Virus record (IMG/VR): IMGVR_UViG_2802429218_000005
Span: 1 to 30,093 of that record
Source of the DNA: a virus
Taxonomy: Duplodnaviria > Heunggongvirae > Uroviricota > Caudoviricetes
Length of the DNA stretch: 30,093 bases
Direction: 5' to 3' (one strand)
The notes beneath the pieces were generated by a model. That model saw nothing but the letters and a program-made list of their open reading frames with translations, ran no database searches and was not told the DNA's origin. Both the position numbers and the translations under genes were made by a program. Each line of letters opens with the position of its first letter. The first letter of the stretch is position 1. Positions 2,930 through 15,847 of the stretch are shown here, one piece after another.

Positions 2930-3796
2930 CTAAGCGAGGTTCTTGTTTTCAAATTGTTCCGGACTGAGGCCGCCACACCAACTGTGCCGCCGCCACCGAT
3001 TGTAATCACATTCGATATAATTAAACACCGTTGCCCGCATTATTTCCCGGCTGATAAAGTGTTCTCCATGGATACATTCCACTTTCAGCGAATGAAAGAA
3101 GCTTTCCACGCAGGCATTATCGTAGCAGCAACCTTTTGCGCTCATACTTCCACGCAGATTATGCCGCTTCAGTTGCGCCTGATAATCTGCTGAACAGTAC
3201 TGGCCTCTACGGTCCGTGTGAACGATAACGTTCCGGGGCCTCTTACGCCGCCACAGCGCCATCTGCAGGGCATCGCAGGCCAGTTGCGCCGTCATGCGTG
3301 GCGACATTGACCAGCCAATAACGGCACGTGACCACAGGTCAATGACCACTGCCAGATACAGCCAGCCTTCATCTGTACGTAAGTACGTGATGTCTCCTGC
3401 CCACTTCTGGTTCGGGCCACTGGCGTAAAAATCCTGCTCCAACAGATTTTCTGACACAGGCAGGCCGTGTGCGCGGTAGCTGACCGGGCTGAACTTCCGG
3501 GAGGCCTTTGCCCTCAGTCCCTGACGGCGCAGGCTTGCCGCCACGGTTTTTACGTTAAAGGGGTAACCCTGAGCACGCAGTTCATCCGTCAGGCGTGGGG
3601 CACCGTAACGCTGTTTTGACCGGGTAAAAGCCGCGAGGACAACGCTGTCGCAGTGTTGGCGGAACTGCTGACGCGTGCTTATCCTTGTCCGCCGCTGACA
3701 CCACGTATACCAGCCGCTGCGGGCCACCCGGAGCACGCGGCACATTGCTTTGATGCTGAACTCAGCCTGATGTTTTTCAATAAAGACATACTTCAT
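2930..3796 (-). CDS. insF: IS3 transposase OrfB (DDE catalytic component; normally expressed as OrfAB by -1 frameshift)
   Basis: Translation [32 protein letters not shown]... with integrase-core motifs ([18 protein letters not shown]); frame is -1 relative to orfA. Confidence 0.9.
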
Positions 3797-4101
3797 TTCA
3801 GGCGCTTCGCGAAGTATGTCGCGGCCTTTTGGAGGATAGCCAGCTCTTCATCCCGTTCTGCCAGCTGGCGTTTGAGACGTGCAATCTCGGTAGACATCTC
3901 CAGTTCACGTTCAGAAGACGTCTGCTGATTTTGCTGTTTACTGCGCCAGTTGTAGAGCTGTGATTCATACAGGCTGAGTTCACGGGCTGCGGCAGTAACA
4001 CCGATGCGTTCAGCAAGCTTCAGGGCTTCACTGCGAAATTCAGGCGAATGCTGTTTACGGGGTTTTTTACTGGTTGATACTGTTTTTGTCATGTGAGTCA
4101 C
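3793..4101 (-). CDS. insE: IS3 transposase OrfA (HTH component)
   Basis: Translation [35 protein letters not shown]... matches IS3 OrfA as I recall it; ATGA overlap with orfB. Confidence 0.9.
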
Positions 4102-4213
4102 CTCTGACTGAGAGTTTACTCACTTAGCCGCGTGTCCACTATTGCTGGGTAAGATCACTATGCAGTAAAAGTGTAAGATCAAGTTTGAGCTAATACAAGT
4201 TAGCCTCTTTTCA

Positions 4214-4426
4214 CTAGTGAGCCATTTTATAGTCCCTTAATGCATTTTTAAGTAACTCAGTTTGCTCATAAGCATCATCATAATTATAAATTCCGGTAGC
4301 AGAATAATACTCTTCGATGCATAGAATATTTATCAATGGTTCACAAATCTCTTTAATAAACTCCTTGTTGTTATCGGCAAAAATAATTTTTATTCCTTCC
4401 AAAACAAAGCTATTATAATCAGCCAT
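4214..4426 (-). CDS. Hypothetical small acidic protein (70 aa) downstream of trbL
   Basis: Strong Shine-Dalgarno AAGGAGGTGGATA upstream of ATG; AT-rich; no family recognised. Confidence 0.5.
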   Translation of the reverse strand: MADYNSFVLEGIKIIFADNNKEFIKEICEPLINILCIEEYYSATGIYNYDDAYEQTELLKNALRDYKMAH

Positions 4427-4495
4427 TATCCACCTCCTTACAGGTGTTTAGTGGAAGCGTCAGTTAACGTTACCGCGCTAACTGACGCGTCTAAA

Positions 4496-5899
4496 TCAAG
4501 ATTTTTTACTGCCAGTAAAACTATCACCCTCAAACTCATCCTGTTCGTGGTTACTCTGACGATCGGCTGTGTGTTTACGTATTTGATTCGCTATTTCCCC
4601 ACCAACAGTCTGTTGTGTTCGGATAGAATTAGCACTTCCCTTCATCATCTGATACTCCGATGCTCCATTAGACAGCCCGCTCGCCATGTGAGAAGCCATG
4701 CGGCCAGCTCGTGAGAATGATGAAGCAAACCCCTGGCTTCCTCCGCTGACGCTACCTGTATTGCTCCCTGCAGAAGAACCACCGGAACCGCCTGATGGTT
4801 GTCCTCCAGAAGTATCTACGGAACCGGTATCTTCCCCGCCGCCAAATCCTCCACCTAAACCACCTTTATCACCAGAACCAGATTCTTCGGCCATCGCCGC
4901 TTGTGCAGATTCAAATGCTGCTTTTAGAGCGGAAGCACCACCACTGACTTGAGCTGTAGCGCTCATTGCCATTGCCCCAGCGCCACTGATTGCAGTAGTA
5001 GCAGCGCCAGTAATCATACCTGCTCCAAAACCACCGATCCCTTGTAAGGACGCTCCTCCAACAACGCCTGATAACAACAACGGTAATTTATTCGTCAATA
5101 CTAAAAGAATAATTGACGCCAGAAGTAAAACAATAAGACTATTAAGATCAGGAATATCATTTTTAATAATAGAAAAATACTGATCTAAAAATGATTGCCC
5201 AATCCCAATGATTAATGTCATTGTAAATAATTGAATACCAATCGATAATACTGTGCGTAAGTAATTTATTGCTATATCAGAAGTCCATTTCGAGCCACCA
5301 AACCCAAGAAAAATAACTCCTGCATAACACAACACCCATGCAGAAACTAACATTATTAGCATATTTATCGCGATAAGCGCCATTACTACTAATACTATTA
5401 TCGCGACGGTTATCATTATGGTCGAAATCATTGGAGACCAAATTGATGCCGCTGAACTGACCTTTGTTAATATCACAAAAGCTATATCAACTATGCTGGA
5501 GGGTGAAATACCAGTACTTGTTCCTAAAGCATTTGCTGCAAGTTGTCTCATTGAGTTAATTATAGATTGTGCTATGGCTGGGCCGTTGATTAAAAGATAA
5601 TAAAAAAAACCTATCACGGCAAAAAAACGAACTATTTCTGCAAGTGCATTGATTAAACCTTCCCCTTGCATCGCCAACATACCAAATGTCCAAACCATAC
5701 TGATTAATACCAGCCCCCAGAAGAGCCAATTCGCATAATCACCAATTACTAATGACCATGTGCTGGCTACTTGCTGAAACTTATCTAATAACGTATCAAG
5801 TAAACCGCTACTATCTAATTGACCAGCATAAGCATTTACAGAAAACAAAAAAATCATTCCCCAAAAAGTGAGTTTGCTTACTATTCTCATAATTACCAT
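4496..5899 (-). CDS. trbL: Conjugal transfer protein TrbL/VirB6-like (polytopic membrane protein with Gly/Ser-rich C-terminal tail)
   Basis: Multiple hydrophobic TM segments followed by a GGxGG/SGGS-rich low-complexity tail, typical of TrbL; sits in trbJ-K-L order. Confidence 0.75.
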   Translation of the reverse strand: MVIMRIVSKLTFWGMIFLFSVNAYAGQLDSSGLLDTLLDKFQQVASTWSLVIGDYANWLFWGLVLISMVWTFGMLAMQGEGLINALAEIVRFFAVIGFFYYLLINGPAIAQSIINSMRQLAANALGTSTGISPSSIVDIAFVILTKVSSAASIWSPMISTIMITVAIIVLVVMALIAINMLIMLVSAWVLCYAGVIFLGFGGSKWTSDIAINYLRTVLSIGIQLFTMTLIIGIGQSFLDQYFSIIKNDIPDLNSLIVLLLASIILLVLTNKLPLLLSGVVGGASLQGIGGFGAGMITGAATTAISGAGAMAMSATAQVSGGASALKAAFESAQAAMAEESGSGDKGGLGGGFGGGEDTGSVDTSGGQPSGGSGGSSAGSNTGSVSGGSQGFASSFSRAGRMASHMASGLSNGASEYQMMKGSANSIRTQQTVGGEIANQIRKHTADRQSNHEQDEFEGDSFTGSKKS

Positions 5900-6066
5900 T
5901 CTCGCTTAGGGCTAGGATTGTTATTACTGCGCAGGGCACATTTATCGTAGCTATGTTCGTTCAATTTATTCTCTGGCGTCGATAAACAATCGTCATCTTT
6001 TTTATCACAAGAGCATAGAATCAATGGAATGATTAGAATAAAAATGACCAAAAGTTTATCTTTCAT
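5893..6066 (-). CDS. Small lipoprotein-like ORF (57 aa), TrbK-like entry-exclusion candidate; not in supplied ORF track
   Basis: Hand translation MKDKLLVIFILIIPLILCSCDKKDDDCLSTPENKLNEHSYDKCALRSNNNPSPKREW; signal-peptide-like N-terminus with Cys; stop overlaps trbL start (GAATGGTAA); positioned between trbJ and trbL as trbK is in P-type systems. Confidence 0.4.
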   Translation of the reverse strand: MKDKLLVIFILIIPLILCSCDKKDDDCLSTPENKLNEHSYDKCALRSNNNPSPKREW

Positions 6067-6077
6067 TCAGCTATCCC

Positions 6078-6872
6078 TCACCAAATTCGCTTCGGGCTTG
6101 GTGTGTTCTCGCCAGCTAACGCTTTTTCATCAGCAACTATTTGTTGGGCCTCTTTATCGGTCTGAGCCAGCGCCAGTGTTGCTGCAGCGTTTTGTTGAGC
6201 TATCAGAAGCGAGCGGATTTGCAGCAGCTGGTTTGTTTGAGCACTGGCAAGCTGGTTAGCGGCCTGAATAGCTTCCATTTGCCCTTGCGCGCCGGTTGCC
6301 TGAGTTTGCAAATCTGTCAGGTTATCAGCATCGCTTTGCAGTGTTTCCTGCTGTTGATCGAGAGCCTTAAACACGGCGTCGTTCGCCTTTTTACGTGCCT
6401 CAGAGTTGTTCTGTTCAGCTTTACGCAGTGCGCTGATTTCATCCGCAGTACATTCAACATTACTGTTAAAGCACGGCGATGAGCGGTAGTAATTCACGTC
6501 CTGATAACGTTTCAGATATGAATCCAGACTACCGGCCTGATTTTTGTAGTAATTAAGGGTGTCCTGCGCCTGCAACAATTTGTTGATGGTCGAATTGGCC
6601 TGATCCCAGATATAGGCTGCAGGCGCGACTGTATTTTTGAGCATGTTTTCATACTGCTGCAGCTGCGTCTGGTACTGCTGGATCTGTTTAGCCACAGCCT
6701 GAACGTTATTGACTGCGCTGATTGTGGTCTGCACCACATTAGTACCATCGATGACAGGGATACCGGCTGTCGCCGGTAATGCCATGATGGATGCCAGGAA
6801 GGAAGCTGCTAAAGATTTTTTAGCTGCTAAAATCCCTCTCAGTGATGAAAATACTAGGAGCATTAACTTCAT
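6078..6872 (-). CDS. trbJ: Conjugal transfer protein TrbJ (VirB5-like)
   Basis: Signal-peptide-like N-terminus then AGIPVIDGTNVVQTTISAV and Q-rich coiled-coil region typical of TrbJ; adjacent to trbL. Confidence 0.75.
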   Translation of the reverse strand: MKLMLLVFSSLRGILAAKKSLAASFLASIMALPATAGIPVIDGTNVVQTTISAVNNVQAVAKQIQQYQTQLQQYENMLKNTVAPAAYIWDQANSTINKLLQAQDTLNYYKNQAGSLDSYLKRYQDVNYYRSSPCFNSNVECTADEISALRKAEQNNSEARKKANDAVFKALDQQQETLQSDADNLTDLQTQATGAQGQMEAIQAANQLASAQTNQLLQIRSLLIAQQNAAATLALAQTDKEAQQIVADEKALAGENTPSPKRIW

Positions 6873-6953
6873 TTGCCCACCTTAATTTTAACTGATTATT
6901 GATATTGAAAACTCGTACTTTTAACAGATACAGATATTTAGGAAGCCATAAAT

Positions 6954-7319
6954 TTATTTATCCAAGATTCTATCCATAATATTTCTTAGTTCTTGTCTGG
7001 TTGATTCTATTTTAGCAAGCAACGTTTTTATTAATGAGGGTGAAAAATCAACTGTGCGTGGATCGTTAGCTAACCACAGTTTAAGTAACCCACCAAGTCG
7101 ACCAAGATCAGCATTTACTCGGCTAAGCTCTACAACCTGATCAATATCTACAATAGACTCAACCTGATAACCCATTGCTACTTTACGAATGAAACTCGCT
7201 ACACTTAAGCCAGATGCTTCTGCATTTTCCTGGATTTGCGCTTTTTCATCTGGCAAACAATAAACTTTAATTGGTGTACTATTTTTTCTAGTCTGAGAAA
7301 CGGTCATATCATTCTCCAT
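6954..7319 (-). CDS. MobC-family relaxosome accessory (mobilisation) protein, ribbon-helix-helix type
   Basis: Motifs AEASGLSVASFIRKVAMG and RLGGLLKLWL resemble MobC family; size about 120 aa; upstream of trb genes. Confidence 0.55.
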   Translation of the reverse strand: MENDMTVSQTRKNSTPIKVYCLPDEKAQIQENAEASGLSVASFIRKVAMGYQVESIVDIDQVVELSRVNADLGRLGGLLKLWLANDPRTVDFSPSLIKTLLAKIESTRQELRNIMDRILDK

Positions 7320-8813: not shown

Positions 8814-9080
8814 GTGAGAATTGTGAGGACAAAAAAGGCTGAACCAAGCACTGTAGGTGAAATACTTAATGAAGAATTCTTGAAACCCATGAATATGTCT
8901 TTATGTAAATTAGCGGAATTGACAGGAATGTCTTATAGTAGAATAAGAAAAATTATAATACATAATGATCCAATATCCATAAAAGAAGCATTATTACTTG
9001 CTGAAGTATTTCACACGGATCCGGATTTTTGGATAAACTTACAAAATGTTCATCATTACTGGCATCAAAAATGTAACTGA
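8814..9080 (+). CDS. XRE-family HTH protein, HigA-like antitoxin/antidote (solitary); alternative GTG start at 8823
   Basis: STVGEILNEEFLKPMNMSLCKLAELTGMSYSRIRKII...EALLLAEVFHTDPDFWINLQNVHHYW matches HigA/VapI-type antidote pattern; SD aaggtgag upstream of GTG 8823. Confidence 0.7.
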   Translation: MRIVRTKKAEPSTVGEILNEEFLKPMNMSLCKLAELTGMSYSRIRKIIIHNDPISIKEALLLAEVFHTDPDFWINLQNVHHYWHQKCN

Positions 9081-9134: not shown

Positions 9135-10880
9135 TTAATTATACTCAATGCGGAATAATTTATTCTCTTGAGACAATTTCACAATGAAGTTTTTCTCATC
9201 GCTCAGTTCTTTTGGAAGTTTATCCTTCAATATAGATGCAACATACTGAATTTGAGATTTGTAACGTTCAACAAGATTAGCTATTCTGACCAGTTGATTG
9301 CCATGCATAAGTTCTTTTTTGTCATTTAACAAAAAATGGAAACAAGGAATGTTTTCTTCATCTGCAAATAAAATATATGCAATATCAAAACAAACAATTT
9401 CTCCTTGTTTTTTTCCTGAACTAAAATTGGTATTAAACGAACTGAATTTGTATATTTTTTTTCCTGTTTTTGATGCTGTAACAATATCATATTTCAAAGC
9501 ATATTGTTCACCGTATAACTCTTGAGACACAGTTGAAAAATATTTATTGAACTTATTTACTTGAGATTGAACTTCTAACTCAAAATCATCAGAAAATAAA
9601 TTATTGTTAATAGCATCAACTTGAGCGTTTAACTCTTCGATATTCTTTTCAGTTTTCTCAATTTGGTTAATAATGGCTTCGAACTCACCTTTTTTTCGGT
9701 GTTTTTCATTCAATTCTAAGACTAGTCCTTCAAGTTCATCAAACGAACCGCTTTTATTTATATTTTCAACTAATTCTTTTTCTTTGGCAAGAAGTATAGT
9801 TAAATCTTCTTGAGTTTTACTAATCTCACTAGTTATTACAGGTAATTCTTTTGATATGAATTTAACTTTTTCTTCAACCATTTGGTTGTGGAAGGAAAGT
9901 AATGATTCAAATTTTACCTGAATATTCTTTATATTATTACTGGCTTCAGTATATAGATCTTTCAATTGATTAGTGTCAATTTCCATCTTGCCACTTTCAA
10001 TATCTTTTACCGCCTCAACTATGAGTTCTTTCCGTAATTTAAGCTTACTTAATTTTGAACCTATAGTGCTCAATTGATACTTAATATCATCCAAAGCATT
10101 GAGATCATTTTCAAAGTTAGGGTTGATATAGAAAGTAGACTTTTTCAGATCTAAATCATTAATTTCCGAAATCAATAATGCTAGTGATGTCTCATATGCA
10201 GTGCGAGTTTGTTTAGACTCCAACCTATTCTTGAAGGTTGTTTCCATTCGGATGCTAGCTAACAAATTTTGTTTAAGAGCTCCTTTTCCAAAATCACATC
10301 CAAGAAGAAATAAATGAAGGGTCTCATATTCATCATCACGAGTAAATGAGCTTAGTGTTCTCAGCGTATGGGTGACACTGAGTTCTTTATATCTTATATT
10401 ATTAGATATTATTTGGGAAAAGGTAGGCTTATTACCATAATGGCCAGAAACTAATACGTCTGTTAACGTTTCTTCAAACTCTTCGATTGTTTTTTGTAGT
10501 CCATTAATTCTTCTGATACATTTTTTACGAGAGAGAAAATTTCGCTCAATGACGATGGTCTTAGCTAGCGGATCATCTAAATCCTCAACAAGTGTTAGGG
10601 TTATTAAAACCTCTGTTTCAATCAAGAAGTTTTTAACAAGTGTATATTCGCCCTTTTTAGTTTCTGGGTCAGTATAAATGCCTTTAGCATCTGCGCCTAA
10701 ACAAAAATCGACTAACATTAATACTGTTGTTTTACCAACATTATTGCCAGTGGTTTTGGTTGACTCGGTTGATGCTTCATCAACTGGCGTTTCATCAACG
10801 ATCAAATTCAAACCAGCATGAAACTTTATTAAGCGTATAACCCCATCTTTATTGGCTATCTGGAGAGATTTTATGAACAT
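9135..10880 (-). CDS. SMC/Rad50-like ABC ATPase with central coiled coil (LmuB-like / ABC-3C ATPase candidate)
   Basis: N-terminal FHAGLNLIVDE then Walker A GNNVGKTT (res 45-52); long E/K/L-rich central region; C-terminal Walker B-like ILFADEE; AT-rich; last gene of coupled 3-gene operon. Confidence 0.7.
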   Translation of the reverse strand: MFIKSLQIANKDGVIRLIKFHAGLNLIVDETPVDEASTESTKTTGNNVGKTTVLMLVDFCLGADAKGIYTDPETKKGEYTLVKNFLIETEVLITLTLVEDLDDPLAKTIVIERNFLSRKKCIRRINGLQKTIEEFEETLTDVLVSGHYGNKPTFSQIISNNIRYKELSVTHTLRTLSSFTRDDEYETLHLFLLGCDFGKGALKQNLLASIRMETTFKNRLESKQTRTAYETSLALLISEINDLDLKKSTFYINPNFENDLNALDDIKYQLSTIGSKLSKLKLRKELIVEAVKDIESGKMEIDTNQLKDLYTEASNNIKNIQVKFESLLSFHNQMVEEKVKFISKELPVITSEISKTQEDLTILLAKEKELVENINKSGSFDELEGLVLELNEKHRKKGEFEAIINQIEKTEKNIEELNAQVDAINNNLFSDDFELEVQSQVNKFNKYFSTVSQELYGEQYALKYDIVTASKTGKKIYKFSSFNTNFSSGKKQGEIVCFDIAYILFADEENIPCFHFLLNDKKELMHGNQLVRIANLVERYKSQIQYVASILKDKLPKELSDEKNFIVKLSQENKLFRIEYN

Positions 10881-11100
10881 ATTCCAATTTCCCCTTTGGA
10901 TTTAATTCAACTATTCCTGCTAGGTATAACCAGTCAAGAGATAAAACAAAAATTGATATAGACATTTCAATTTTTTTCTTTGTTTCGTAAAAAAGATCTA
11001 TCAATTCAATTTCATCGAAACGTTTCAGCGTATCTATAATAAACCCACCGTTATAATATAAGCTATCTTTAGGATGAATGTCCTTTGGTAACAACATCAT
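10849..11100 (-). CDS. Small overlapping ORF (83 aa), candidate middle component of three-gene system
   Basis: Overlaps upstream gene end and downstream gene start by 32 nt each (translational coupling); no motif recognised. Confidence 0.4.
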   Translation of the reverse strand: MMLLPKDIHPKDSLYYNGGFIIDTLKRFDEIELIDLFYETKKKIEMSISIFVLSLDWLYLAGIVELNPKGKLEYVHKISPDSQ

Positions 11101-12049
11101 TCACTCCGTTAGGGTCCCTAAAAATTTTACAGCGTATGAACGCGTCCACTGCAAGTATACTAACACAAAGCTCCAGTTCCTCTAATGGTATTTGTGTAAA
11201 ATTTGCACTTTTTCTGACCATTTCAACAGAGCTGTCAATTATTTTAAAAAATAGCTCATCTCCAGTGTATTGTGTACTCAATTTTACGAAGATAGTTCTA
11301 AAGGAAGACAAAACTGAAAGGCTTGAGTTTTTACCCATCTGGTTGAACTCTGAATAAATGCGGGATACTTTTCCATGATGGATTTTGTAATCTTCAATAA
11401 TATATTCAGCTGCATTCAAATTATTAAATGTAATCTTGTCAGTTACATCGAATGGTTGCGGGAAGTCAGTAGTTTCAACATTAGAAAAATCCTCCTTAGC
11501 TAATATATTTATAACAGCAGCAATATTTGTTTCGATTAAAACATTATCAGATTCCTCTTGTAACTCATTTTTTAGAAAACCGTGTATTTCTTTCTGTTTT
11601 GTTATGTCAAGATGTGAAATAACATTAAGTATCGATTTTACATCATGAATATCTTGCTGCGGTATAAAAACCAAAGCATGAGGATTAGTGTAAGTTTTAT
11701 TTCTTAAATCACTAGCATCTTTTGCAATTGATATAAATTTAAACTGATGGCCTTTATATAATCTTAAGTCTTTGTTCAAGGCTGAATCAATTTTTGTTTT
11801 AGTTGCAGTTGATGAAACCTGTAATACTATCTTCCCATTCTCATCGATAAGATCGATACCCTCAAAATTATGCTTCTCTTGATTAGTATTCTTTAGGGAA
11901 TACCCAAATAATAAATTAAAGAAGTGAACATAAAAATCTTCACAATGAAGATTATAGTTAAGAATATTTAACTTCCCTCTTAATTCAACGCTATAGCATA
12001 GCAACGTAAGCCTTTTCTCACATAAATCAAAATAAATAGATCTGTTCAC
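11069..12049 (-). CDS. Hypothetical 326-aa protein, candidate effector (LmuA-position) of three-gene defence-like operon
   Basis: First gene of the operon; AT-rich; no confidently recognisable catalytic motif by eye. Confidence 0.6.
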   Translation of the reverse strand: MNRSIYFDLCEKRLTLLCYSVELRGKLNILNYNLHCEDFYVHFFNLLFGYSLKNTNQEKHNFEGIDLIDENGKIVLQVSSTATKTKIDSALNKDLRLYKGHQFKFISIAKDASDLRNKTYTNPHALVFIPQQDIHDVKSILNVISHLDITKQKEIHGFLKNELQEESDNVLIETNIAAVINILAKEDFSNVETTDFPQPFDVTDKITFNNLNAAEYIIEDYKIHHGKVSRIYSEFNQMGKNSSLSVLSSFRTIFVKLSTQYTGDELFFKIIDSSVEMVRKSANFTQIPLEELELCVSILAVDAFIRCKIFRDPNGVNDVVTKGHSS

Positions 12050-12302
12050 ACATATTATCCTTAAACTATAAACTAATCCGATATTATGAACTTAGGTAAA
12101 GTAGAAAAACTCTTCACAGATCTTACAGCATCTACGAGCTGGTTCAAGGTATGTTGAGATGGATTGAGATGTGTAGCGTATCTTCTCATTCCAAAAAGAA
12201 ACCTGCCACAATTTTGCCACACTCACAACGCGCAAAAATGCACATTTGTGTTAAGAAAAGCAAAACAACGCAACAGTAACCAGATGATTTTATTAGAAAA
12301 AA

Positions 12303-12348
12303 TGGTGCCGATAATAGGAGTCGAACCTACGACCTTCGCATTACGAAT
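12303..12348 (-). tRNA. tRNA-Thr(CGU) 3' fragment, 46 nt from anticodon loop to CCA (thrW-like att-core remnant, not a complete gene)
   Basis: Reverse complement reads ATTCGTAATGCGAAGGTCGTAGGTTCGACTCCTATTATCGGCACCA; sequence 5' of the anticodon loop does not continue as tRNA. Confidence 0.7.
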
Positions 12349-12571
12349 CATAAGAATCCGCTTCTAATTCAAAGTATTACCCCATCAACACTGCGCTCAC
12401 ACGTCCCACCACATCAAAACATGTAAAGCCTTGCAAGCCATTGTGAGGCCTTATGTGTCTCAGTTTTGTCCCACTACGACCTGCACAGAAAATAAGAAAA
12501 TAGCGGTGATATCAAACAGTACAGAAGTCTTTTTTCTTTCAAATGGAGAAACTGATTAACCCGTTTAATTG

Positions 12572-12796
12572 TACTCCTCATGGGCAATCAGCAGTCCTCA
12601 GAGTAATGGAATGGCAGAAAGGTTCGTGAAAACGATGAAGGAAGACTACATCGCGTTCATGCCGAAACCGAATGTAAGAACGGCATTGCATAATCTTGCA
12701 GTGGCGATCGAACATTACAATGAAAACCATCCGCACAGTGCGTTGGGTTATCGCTCTCCGCGAGAATATCGACGTCAGCGGGTAACGTTAACTTAA
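12572..12796 (+). pseudogene. DDE transposase/integrase-core C-terminal fragment (IS3/IS481-like), 5'-truncated
   Basis: [18 protein letters not shown] ... [14 protein letters not shown] are C-terminal rve-domain motifs; in-frame stop immediately upstream, no N-terminal part present. Confidence 0.55.
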
Positions 12797-12837
12797 GATA
12801 CACCCCCTGTCTGGAAATAAGGGGGCAAGAACAATGA

Positions 12838-13590
12838 TCAGATTCCCTGGTGAGTAAGAATTTTACTTTCTGAACTCCTCTGAGAGTATTGACTTGGAGA
12901 AACACCAAAATAACGTCTAAATACATAAGTAAAGTATGAGACACTGACATAACCACAGACCTTAGCTACTTTACTAATAGGATAACAACGAGTGCTGAGT
13001 AAATATTCAGCCATTTGCATCCTCTCATCAAGTATGATCTTACTGAATGATACCCCCTCTTCTTTCAATTTCCTCTTTAGTAAACTTTCGCTGAGATATA
13101 ATCTTGATGATATATCCTTAAGACGCCATGGTGCAGATAAATCCGTATGAATAATCGTTTTAACTTTAGCCCCTGTGCTTTTCAAACATCCAAACAGAAA
13201 TACTCCAAATTGTTTTTCAGAAGAAAATGCAGAGAGACATGTAAAAGCAATAGACTCATCAAAAGTTTCTATGTATTCAGCACAGTGATTAGCCCAACTA
13301 ATTAATCCTTTAATTAAACTGAAGTCAGCAAAGTTTATTTTTAAATAAGATGGATATTCCCTACAATCAGAAATATCCCTTAAGTTATTAGCTTTCAAAT
13401 AGCGACTAATAAACTCAGCGCCAAAATCCGCCACTATCACTCTTTCAGGATATGTCAGGAAAAAATCTCTATAGCTAGAGTCGACAAGTACAGATAAACC
13501 TCTATCCAGAAACACACTCTCTTTTCCGAAATAAACATCAAAGGACTCCAAAATCAATATAACTGAACATGTAGTTGCCATATCATCCAC
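12838..13590 (-). CDS. AraC-family transcriptional regulator (AppY/EnvY-like subfamily)
   Basis: C-terminal HTH region WRLKDISSRLYLSESLLKRKLKEEGVSFSKIILDERMQMAEYLL...CGYVSVSYFTYVFRRYFGVSPSQY resembles AppY/EnvY as recalled; AT-rich. Confidence 0.8.
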   Translation of the reverse strand: MDDMATTCSVILILESFDVYFGKESVFLDRGLSVLVDSSYRDFFLTYPERVIVADFGAEFISRYLKANNLRDISDCREYPSYLKINFADFSLIKGLISWANHCAEYIETFDESIAFTCLSAFSSEKQFGVFLFGCLKSTGAKVKTIIHTDLSAPWRLKDISSRLYLSESLLKRKLKEEGVSFSKIILDERMQMAEYLLSTRCYPISKVAKVCGYVSVSYFTYVFRRYFGVSPSQYSQRSSESKILTHQGI

Positions 13591-14164
13591 CCAATTTAAC
13601 TGAAACCAGGATGAAGTATATGCATATAAAGTTCACTTTGCCAAACTTCAGTATAAAAAACCACATAAAAAATAGGGTGTGATAAAAAATACCGTAAAAA
13701 TAAAGCAAAGGATTATAAATTCCGTTACAGTTACAAATGATACTTAAGAAACAATTCCTTAGAAAACCTTATTTACAGCCAATAAGTAAGACACTTATAT
13801 GATATCAAGTTTTCATAAAACATAACTAGGCTAAATAGCTGCGCCTAATACCGCTACACTTTTGCCATCCCATGTTTGCCTCCGGGTATTGACCCCTTCT
13901 CTACGCAACTTCAGTTCCCACCACCAACTTTGCGGCAGCTTTGTAGGATCAATGTCTAAAAGAATAATGGTGACCGATAAGAAAACGACTGAATAACTGC
14001 AGATTTTCGCTCGAAACCTTCCTGTCAGATCCATAGCGAATCAAGTGCTGAATGTCACAGTATCGAACAGAAAACAGTGACGATCTAACCCTTCAAGAAT
14101 ATTCTACGATTGTTCTGTTTAGGAAAAGCAAGGCGGGAAGTCGGGAGATAAGTCATTGATAAAG

Positions 14165-14230
14165 TGGCGGAGAGAGGGGGATTTGACCCCCCGGTAGAGT
14201 TGCCCCTACTCCGGTTTTCGAGACCGGTCC
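14165..14230 (-). tRNA. tRNA-Ser(CGA) 3' fragment, about 66 nt, with T-arm substitution (GTTC to GGTC); serU-like att-core remnant
   Basis: Reverse complement reads GGACCGGTCTCGAAAACCGGAGTAGGGGCAACTCTACCGGGGGGTCAAATCCCCCTCTCTCCGCCA; 5' part of tRNA absent. Confidence 0.7.
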
Positions 14231-14309
14231 AATCATCAAACGAAACATAAAATTAATTCACATTATGAGGAAAAGTATCTTTTTTGTACTTGTAAATTCA
14301 AAGGCTTAG

Positions 14310-15179
<870 letters not shown>

Positions 15180-15239
15180 GTCTTTAAGTGATAAGCATAA
15201 ACCGCAGCACGATCTTCTTGCATACGACGTGCTACGGTT

Positions 15240-15794
15240 TCATTTATCTCCGACCGGAAACTTCTTATACAGTGTCGATATACCAACATCATAGATGATC
15301 GCCACCTTCTGGCGAGGAACGCCTGATGCAATTAATCGTCCGGCCTGCTCCCATTGTTCTGGTGTAAGTTTGGGGCGACGTCCACCAATTCGTCCCTGTG
15401 CGCGAGCTGCTTCTAGTCCAGCTTTTGTTCGTTCAACAATCAGTTCACGCTCCATTTCAGCCAGGGCACCCATCACATGAAAGAAAAAGCGCCCCATTGG
15501 GGTACTGGTATCAATTGAATCCGTCAGACTACGAAAGTTGATGCCTCGTTCGCGCAACTCCTCCACCAGCACGACAAGATGCCGCATACTGCGCCCCAGT
15601 CGGTCCAGTTTCCAGACCACCAGCGTGTCACCTGCCGATAATGTCCTGAGCAGCTTTTTCAGTCCTGGTCTGTCGGACTTTGTACCGCTTATCTTGTCTT
15701 CAAAAATTAGCTCACACCCTGCACAGTTCAGCGCATTGCGTTGTAGATCGGTATTCTGGTCATTTGTTGATACACGTACATAGCCAATAAGCAT
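15240..15794 (-). CDS. pin: Serine recombinase DNA invertase, Pin/Gin/Hin/Cin family
   Basis: MLIGYVRVSTNDQNTDLQRNAL...VVWKLDRLGRSMRHL...GRIGGRRPKLT nearly identical to my recollection of e14 Pin; SD AGGGGGA 5 nt upstream of ATG at 15794; track N-terminal extension is spurious. Confidence 0.9.
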   Translation of the reverse strand: MLIGYVRVSTNDQNTDLQRNALNCAGCELIFEDKISGTKSDRPGLKKLLRTLSAGDTLVVWKLDRLGRSMRHLVVLVEELRERGINFRSLTDSIDTSTPMGRFFFHVMGALAEMERELIVERTKAGLEAARAQGRIGGRRPKLTPEQWEQAGRLIASGVPRQKVAIIYDVGISTLYKKFPVGDK

Positions 15795-15847
15795 GTTAAA
15801 TCCCCCTGGTAAAAGCAGGAATGATGCCATTTGCTTGTTATTTCTTC

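Follow-up and report, generated by a model that had tools for sequence, protein, structure and literature searches.

The last 251 bp of ISEc48 abut the attachment arm of an SfV-like prophage of Escherichia coli

The window, by which we mean the whole 30,093-nt stretch of DNA analysed, carries an SfV/SfI-like prophage on its right, and at the edge of this prophage lies an islet that includes the C-terminal end of a DDE transposase. The initial annotation had placed this fragment beside a tRNA-Thr scar, in an islet between two tRNA scars. The islet contains the following features, left to right in window coordinates.

12303-12348, minus strand: nt 31-76 of thrW (tRNA-Thr CGU), a 46-nt att core, 100% identical to K-12 thrW
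12349-12582, no strand assigned: phage attP arm, the non-coding leader of the cargo region; 234 bp of native sequence joined to the IS stub
12569-12796, plus strand: 75-codon open reading frame with a TTG start, a pseudogene; codons 1-5 (MYSSW) are att-arm DNA and codons 6-75 are ISEc48 OrfB
12583-12833, plus strand: ISEc48 3' remnant, the last 251 bp of an IS3-family (IS2-group) element of ~1,336 bp
12838-13590, minus strand: open reading frame for an AraC-family regulator (PGAP, "AraC family transcriptional regulator"), convergent with the IS stub
13832-13886, no strand assigned: scrap from the end of an IS630-family element (55 bp), with a 90.9% match in the terminus and 3' end of an IS630-family transposase gene on plasmid pJNE23-001_1
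13887-14230, minus strand: captured host DNA, comprising 278 bp of the yodB-serU intergenic region (13887-14164) and the 3' 66 nt of tRNA-Ser serU (14165-14230)

The product of the 75-codon frame matched the Pfam integrase core family rve_3 (E=6.7e-17; score 61.4 bits, cut-off 26.5) over positions 12-67 only, and the NCBIfam model "IS2 transposase TnpB" over positions 223-290 of 301 (E=1.6e-28); both matches are far above chance. The frame is nevertheless a pseudogene and not a gene. Upon inspection of the sequence, we saw no Shine-Dalgarno-like motif before it, and PGAP, in near-identical genomes, treats the DNA from 12584 onward as a pseudogene for an "integrase core domain-containing protein", incomplete and missing its N-terminus. 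About 75 transposase codons had been thought to survive; the remnant is real, and 70 of the 75 codons derive from the IS while the first five belong to the phage att arm. The in-frame stop noticed immediately upstream is also present (TAA, 12566-12568, directly before the frame), and it lies in att-arm DNA, not in the IS.

Searching plasmids by tblastn and E. coli genomes by blastn led to an IS3-family element that PGAP names ISEc48. Window positions 12583-12833 aligned without gaps to the ISEc48 copy on an E. albertii plasmid (246/251, 98%; E=5e-124) and matched nt 1085-1335 of the complete E. coli 3R copy at 96.8% identity; ISEc48 numbering throughout is that of the 3R copy (NZ_CP049348.1; the E. 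albertii copy, our first reference, is without the outer left repeat). At the protein level, tblastn matched OrfB residues 225-294 to 12584-12793 (70 residues, 100% identical, E=7e-44), and with the stop codon these codons occupy 12584-12796. The remnant runs 37 bp beyond this stop to 12833 and contains the complete 41-bp right inverted repeat of ISEc48 (12793-12833), which ends ...GGGGGCAAGAACA with a terminal CA. Elements are called the same IS in ISfinder at >90% DNA or >95% protein identity, and the surviving part exceeds both levels (96.8-98% over 251 bp of DNA; 100% over 70 residues). The blastn and tblastn alignments thus supply both the parent element and the extent of its truncation: the stub shares with ISEc48 the 70 OrfB residues, the stop codon, and the right repeat, amounting to 19% of the element.

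The ISEc48 copies used as references have features of their own. A direct repeat of 15-16 bp, AGCACAACGATGCAC[T], borders the complete 3R copy on both sides (NZ_CP049348.1, ~265-280 and 1616-1631) and is much longer than the few bp expected of IS3/IS2-type target duplications. In the E. albertii plasmid pESA118_1, the end of another IS3-family element stands in place of the outer ~20 bp of the left repeat (~1380-1435), and a similar insertion of one IS into another is seen at ISEc48 nt 839 in E. coli strain E3 and in phage Lambda_ev099.

No other ISEc48 DNA or protein (IS nt 1-1084, OrfA, or OrfB residues 1-224) was found by blastn or tblastn within the 30-kb window. When the full OrfA and OrfB were run by tblastn against the whole window, OrfB residues 225-294 alone were returned, which bears out the statement that no N-terminal part survives; the sole other significant match was to an unrelated IS3 copy (2951-3412, 26% identity). 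Similarly, the 5' half of ISEc48 was not found elsewhere in the window, where the sole other rve-type match is that same IS3 copy (2930-4101). Intact ISEc48 copies are annotated with a programmed frameshift, and in contrast to them, the stub has no orfA/orfB pair with a programmed -1 frameshift region. Terminal inverted repeats of the form 5'-TG...CA-3' are not present at both ends; the right one is intact and the left one is gone. The DDE triad of the rve integrase core is likewise incomplete. By likeness to other IS3-family transposases, we assign its residues provisionally to WCSDGFEF, WQTDNGSAY, and SNGMAERF of OrfB; the stub keeps the Glu of SNGMAERF alone, and both Asp motifs lie upstream of the breakpoint. 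Because OrfA, the frameshift site, both catalytic Asp residues, and the left inverted repeat have been lost, the stub should be inert, able neither to make transposase nor to move as a two-ended element. It is at most a 251-bp stretch of homology for recombination with other ISEc48 copies. The stub itself is already known, as both PGAP and the Sakai reference annotation mark a partial transposase here.

To the left of the stub, the thrW piece is not the scar it had been taken for. A tRNA-Thr fragment is indeed present, but it lies 234 bp from the transposase fragment and is an exact att core rather than a decayed gene. SfI, SfV, SfII, SfX, and P22 duplicate a 46-nt core, ATTCGTAATGCGAAGGTCGTAGGTTCGACTCCTATTATCGGCACCA, when they integrate (PMC3636060), and window positions 12348-12303 are identical to it. 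These 46 nt are the 3' end of thrW, and a phage attP arm and SfV-like structural genes lie beside them. Because the match to the phage att core is exact, what is seen here is an ordinary junction for the SfV-like prophage to the right. The core marks the prophage-host junction distal to int, the integrase end of the prophage falling outside the window. Simpler genomes confirm this, since in them the core, arm, stub, and AraC gene adjoin the chromosomal yagP'-paoD side of the thrW locus. ARAGORN found no intact tRNA in the window, and an Rfam scan missed the thrW piece, which was too short for it and was identified by alignment to K-12.

The DNA between core and stub is a continuous phage att arm. 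Window positions 12300-12473 are 96.6% identical to the attP core and arm of SfV upstream of gtrA, and positions 12414-12588 have a 94.9% match in O157:H7 strain 2149, next to an icd' fragment, where the sequence goes on ...CATGGG/TAATGTTAAGG (...CTCATGGGTAATGTTAAGG) and not into an IS. About 4,000 E. coli genomes contain homologues of the arm (80-90% identity). A suspicion that the 41 bp at 12542-12582 were filler, or the end of a further IS, arose from their likeness to the IS end that abuts ISEc48 in strain E3; it was rejected, the whole 175 bp, these 41 included, being continuous beside icd' in strain 2149.

At the breakpoint, ISEc48 reads ...CACAACGGCAATCAGCAG and the window reads ...CTCATGGGCAATCAGCAG. 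The junction itself is CATGGGTAAT in the native form, AACGGCAATC in the IS, and CATGGGCAATC in the window, so that the switch from arm to IS at 12583-12584 falls on a shared GG (a 2-bp microhomology) inside a GGnAAT patch in which five of six positions agree. A 2-bp overlap on its own is weak evidence, and the parental arm is represented in this comparison by a 95%-identical stand-in. The change from continuous phage att arm left of 12584 to IS nt ~1085 across the GG agrees with the deletion or rearrangement that had been proposed for this junction.

On the right, the stub ends at 12833, and the stop codon of the AraC gene (12838-12840) follows 4 bp beyond. We found the same junction in other genomes: window positions 12583-12900 are 99.4-99.7% identical to the corresponding loci of O157:H7 and strain E3. 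Nor is the truncation itself private to the source genome, as it recurs in at least 137 complete E. coli genomes. The junction between IS and AraC gene is common to all variants, and the left breakpoints differ (IS nt 839, 862, and 1085), as follows.

IS nt 862-1335: O157:H7 variant, in prophage Sp1 at thrW; 327 complete genomes
IS nt 839-1335, abutted by another IS end: variant of strain E3 (at bio-ybhB) and phage Lambda_ev099; 185 complete genomes
IS nt 1085-1335: window variant; at least 137 and at most 246 complete E. coli genomes

A whole ISEc48 joined to the AraC gene was found in none of 5,426 complete E. coli genomes searched with a chimeric query (ISEc48 plus the AraC 3' end). Coverage of this query never exceeded 82%, the share of the IS alone, and therefore no complete genome has an intact IS at the AraC site; whole copies at other sites are present in 255 genomes. 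A shared IS-AraC junction with stubs of varied length, and no whole ISEc48 at the site, points to one old insertion that was truncated repeatedly. The simplest reading is a single ancestral insertion, which would have been full length at the AraC site, followed by at least three separate left-side truncations, with the stub travelling along with the AraC gene.

Among the closest known systems is the O157:H7 counterpart of the locus. The Sakai genome (NC_002695.2) carries in Sp1, at the chromosomal thrW locus shared with the window, an annotated "ISEc48 Family: IS3 partial", with thrW on one side and a second thrW att core on the other. The Sakai remnant meets the AraC gene at the junction seen in the window, and the gene too is shared (99.4% over 12583-12900). 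The Sakai copy differs in retaining ~223 bp more of the IS, in an att arm that is 88.7% identical, and in a left breakpoint that formed separately. Where the two were compared, the window AraC gene and the Sp1 AraC gene at thrW share ~99.4% DNA identity, and from the location of this Sp1 counterpart the gene is probably PatE (z0321, OI-8). PatE is a reported activator of acid resistance and repressor of the LEE (PMC10877973).

Beyond the AraC gene, the islet continues as a patchwork. The IS630 scrap is cut off exactly at its junction with the serU flank, and the AraC gene is thus bracketed by two IS stubs, each of which keeps its gene-facing end. The adjoining block, 13887-14230, is 97.4% identical to K-12 over 344 bp; Rfam gave only a weak tRNA-clan match for the serU piece (14176-14246), and the scar was identified by alignment to K-12. 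The serU block is also carried by phages Lambda_ev099 and PhiR70_1, and it looks like host DNA captured from a serU attachment site that is now carried with phages. Indeed, these two phages contain the whole block 12583-14226 at about 99% identity, and thus the islet is a travelling patchwork cassette rather than debris made locally. Its parts are the ISEc48 stub, the AraC gene, the IS630 scrap, and the captured serU flank. The view of the islet as a decayed composite gains support from the serU scar and the IS630 scrap: the 1.9 kb beside the prophage att site are a patchwork of IS scraps, host DNA from the serU flank, and phage att-arm sequence.

We consider it very probable that the stub is a nonfunctional relic of one old ISEc48 insertion beside the AraC gene, later truncated onto an SfV-like att arm. 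In the sequence of events that we propose, ISEc48 would have inserted 4 bp after the stop codon that ends a prophage-borne AraC-family gene, within the variable cargo region beside the attachment site of temperate phages. Illegitimate recombination would then have deleted ~1,085 bp from the start of the IS, along with whatever cargo lay to its left, through a crossover at the 2-bp GG microhomology within the GGnAAT patch. The product would be IS nt ~1085 fused to the attP arm, 234 bp from the 46-nt thrW core of the SfV-like prophage. The identity and boundaries of the stub, the absence of the rest of the IS, the right junction with its three left breakpoints, and the att context are all direct observations, and from them we infer how the events were ordered, that microhomology mediated the fusion, and that the stub has no function.

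As such, the stub is ordinary genome debris, the dead last fifth of ISEc48 at the edge of an E. coli SfV-like prophage. It is of little weight in itself, and the IS pseudogene has already been flagged automatically in hundreds of E. coli genomes; what is newly specified is the parent IS, where exactly its remnant begins and ends, and what the thrW piece is. It has modest value as a marker: the shared IS-AraC junction, together with the breakpoints at 839, 862, and 1085, traces the descent of an AraC cassette that has moved around among lambdoid, SfV-like, and remnant prophages and whose O157:H7 counterpart sits where PatE was reported.

The stub is kept at about 99% identity in several hundred genomes, a persistence that hitch-hiking with the neighbouring AraC gene would explain equally well. 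One could imagine instead that the right repeat of ISEc48 was kept as the 3' end or terminator of the convergent PatE-like AraC gene, or that the ISEc48 and IS630 stubs serve as recombination handles; we regard this pair of ideas as improbable. If the stubs did act as handles, the AraC cassette could pass from the cargo slot of one temperate phage to that of an unrelated one (lambdoid ev099, SfV-like, and Sp1).

Three other accounts of the stub itself were weighed. The element might have been interrupted rather than deleted, split by an inserted island or second IS with its 5' part still nearby. Strain E3 and phage Lambda_ev099 show what such an event looks like: ISEc48 nt 839 is abutted there by the end of another IS3-family transposase gene, and therefore an insertion into the AraC-side IS copy has occurred in a sister lineage. 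In the window, however, there is no second IS end at 12583, the flank is a contiguous att arm, and the 5' part of ISEc48 is nowhere within the 30 kb, leaving a split element very unlikely, although the genome extends beyond the window and might hold a 5' part farther away.

Retention might also be explained if the stub had been co-opted, either as a small integrase-core-like protein or with its inverted repeat serving as the AraC 3' UTR or terminator. On the AraC strand, the right inverted repeat holds a G+C-rich hairpin of 7 bp, beginning 15 nt downstream of the AraC stop, and all three truncation variants keep this end of the element. However, the hairpin folded no better than shuffled sequences (z = -0.43; 61 of 200 shuffles were equal or better), and a scan for the terminator consensus gave no match at its position. 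As for a protein, the 210 coding nt differ from the E. albertii ISEc48 copy by synonymous changes only, but there are just two of these, which have no statistical weight; moreover, the TTG start is att-arm DNA, the frame has no visible Shine-Dalgarno-like motif, and two of the three catalytic residues are gone. Physical linkage to the AraC gene accounts for the retention of the stub, and we judge co-option to be highly unlikely.

Finally, a complete ISEc48 broken by frameshifts or point mutations, with a full transposase gene still recoverable, can be dismissed as next to impossible: the programmed -1 frameshift usual in IS3-family transposases means that apparent breaks are expected even in intact copies, but the DNA directly left of the stub is SfV-type attP arm, and no frameshift, including the single one by which the initial annotation thought a full-length frame might be regained, restores the gene because the window contains no other ISEc48 sequence.

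The islet occupies a known cargo slot. To its right, the tail and baseplate genes of the prophage are 97-98% identical to those of SfV, SfI, and SfII. In the Shigella phages SfV and SfI, the region from attP to the tail-fibre genes is a serotype-conversion cargo slot that holds gtrABV; the window has the same 46-nt core and an arm that remains 96.6% identical for 125 bp past it, whereas gtrA-gtrB-gtrV of SfV are replaced by the ISEc48 stub, the AraC gene, the IS630 scrap, the serU-flank DNA, a GIY-YIG gene, and a pinE invertase gene. The last two are a LEM-3-like GIY-YIG nuclease gene (14355-15179) and a pinE-type invertase gene (15240-15830), and they precede tail-fibre and assembly genes of opposite orientation. 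By analogy with e14 and Mu, the 14355-15830 region is probably an invertible host-range segment.

On the left of the thrW core, the window carries a further island with a three-gene ABC-three-component system, HigA, TraJ, TrbJ, TrbL, and an IS3 element. The three genes that PGAP annotates in near-identical genomes as an "ABC-three component system" (9135-12049, minus strand) directly abut the thrW att core and encode a 326-residue ABC-3C protein, an 83-residue "middle component 6", and a 581-residue DUF2326 protein; a HigA antitoxin gene lies near them (8823-9080). The remnants of a conjugative element (TrbL, TrbJ, and TraJ) span 2930-7319 by the IS3 copy at 2930-4101, and no integrase gene lies beside the thrW core. 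Conjugative remnants with no integrase suggest a decayed island downstream of thrW. A different variant of the ABC-three-component system occupies the equivalent place in a P4-like island of O157:H7.
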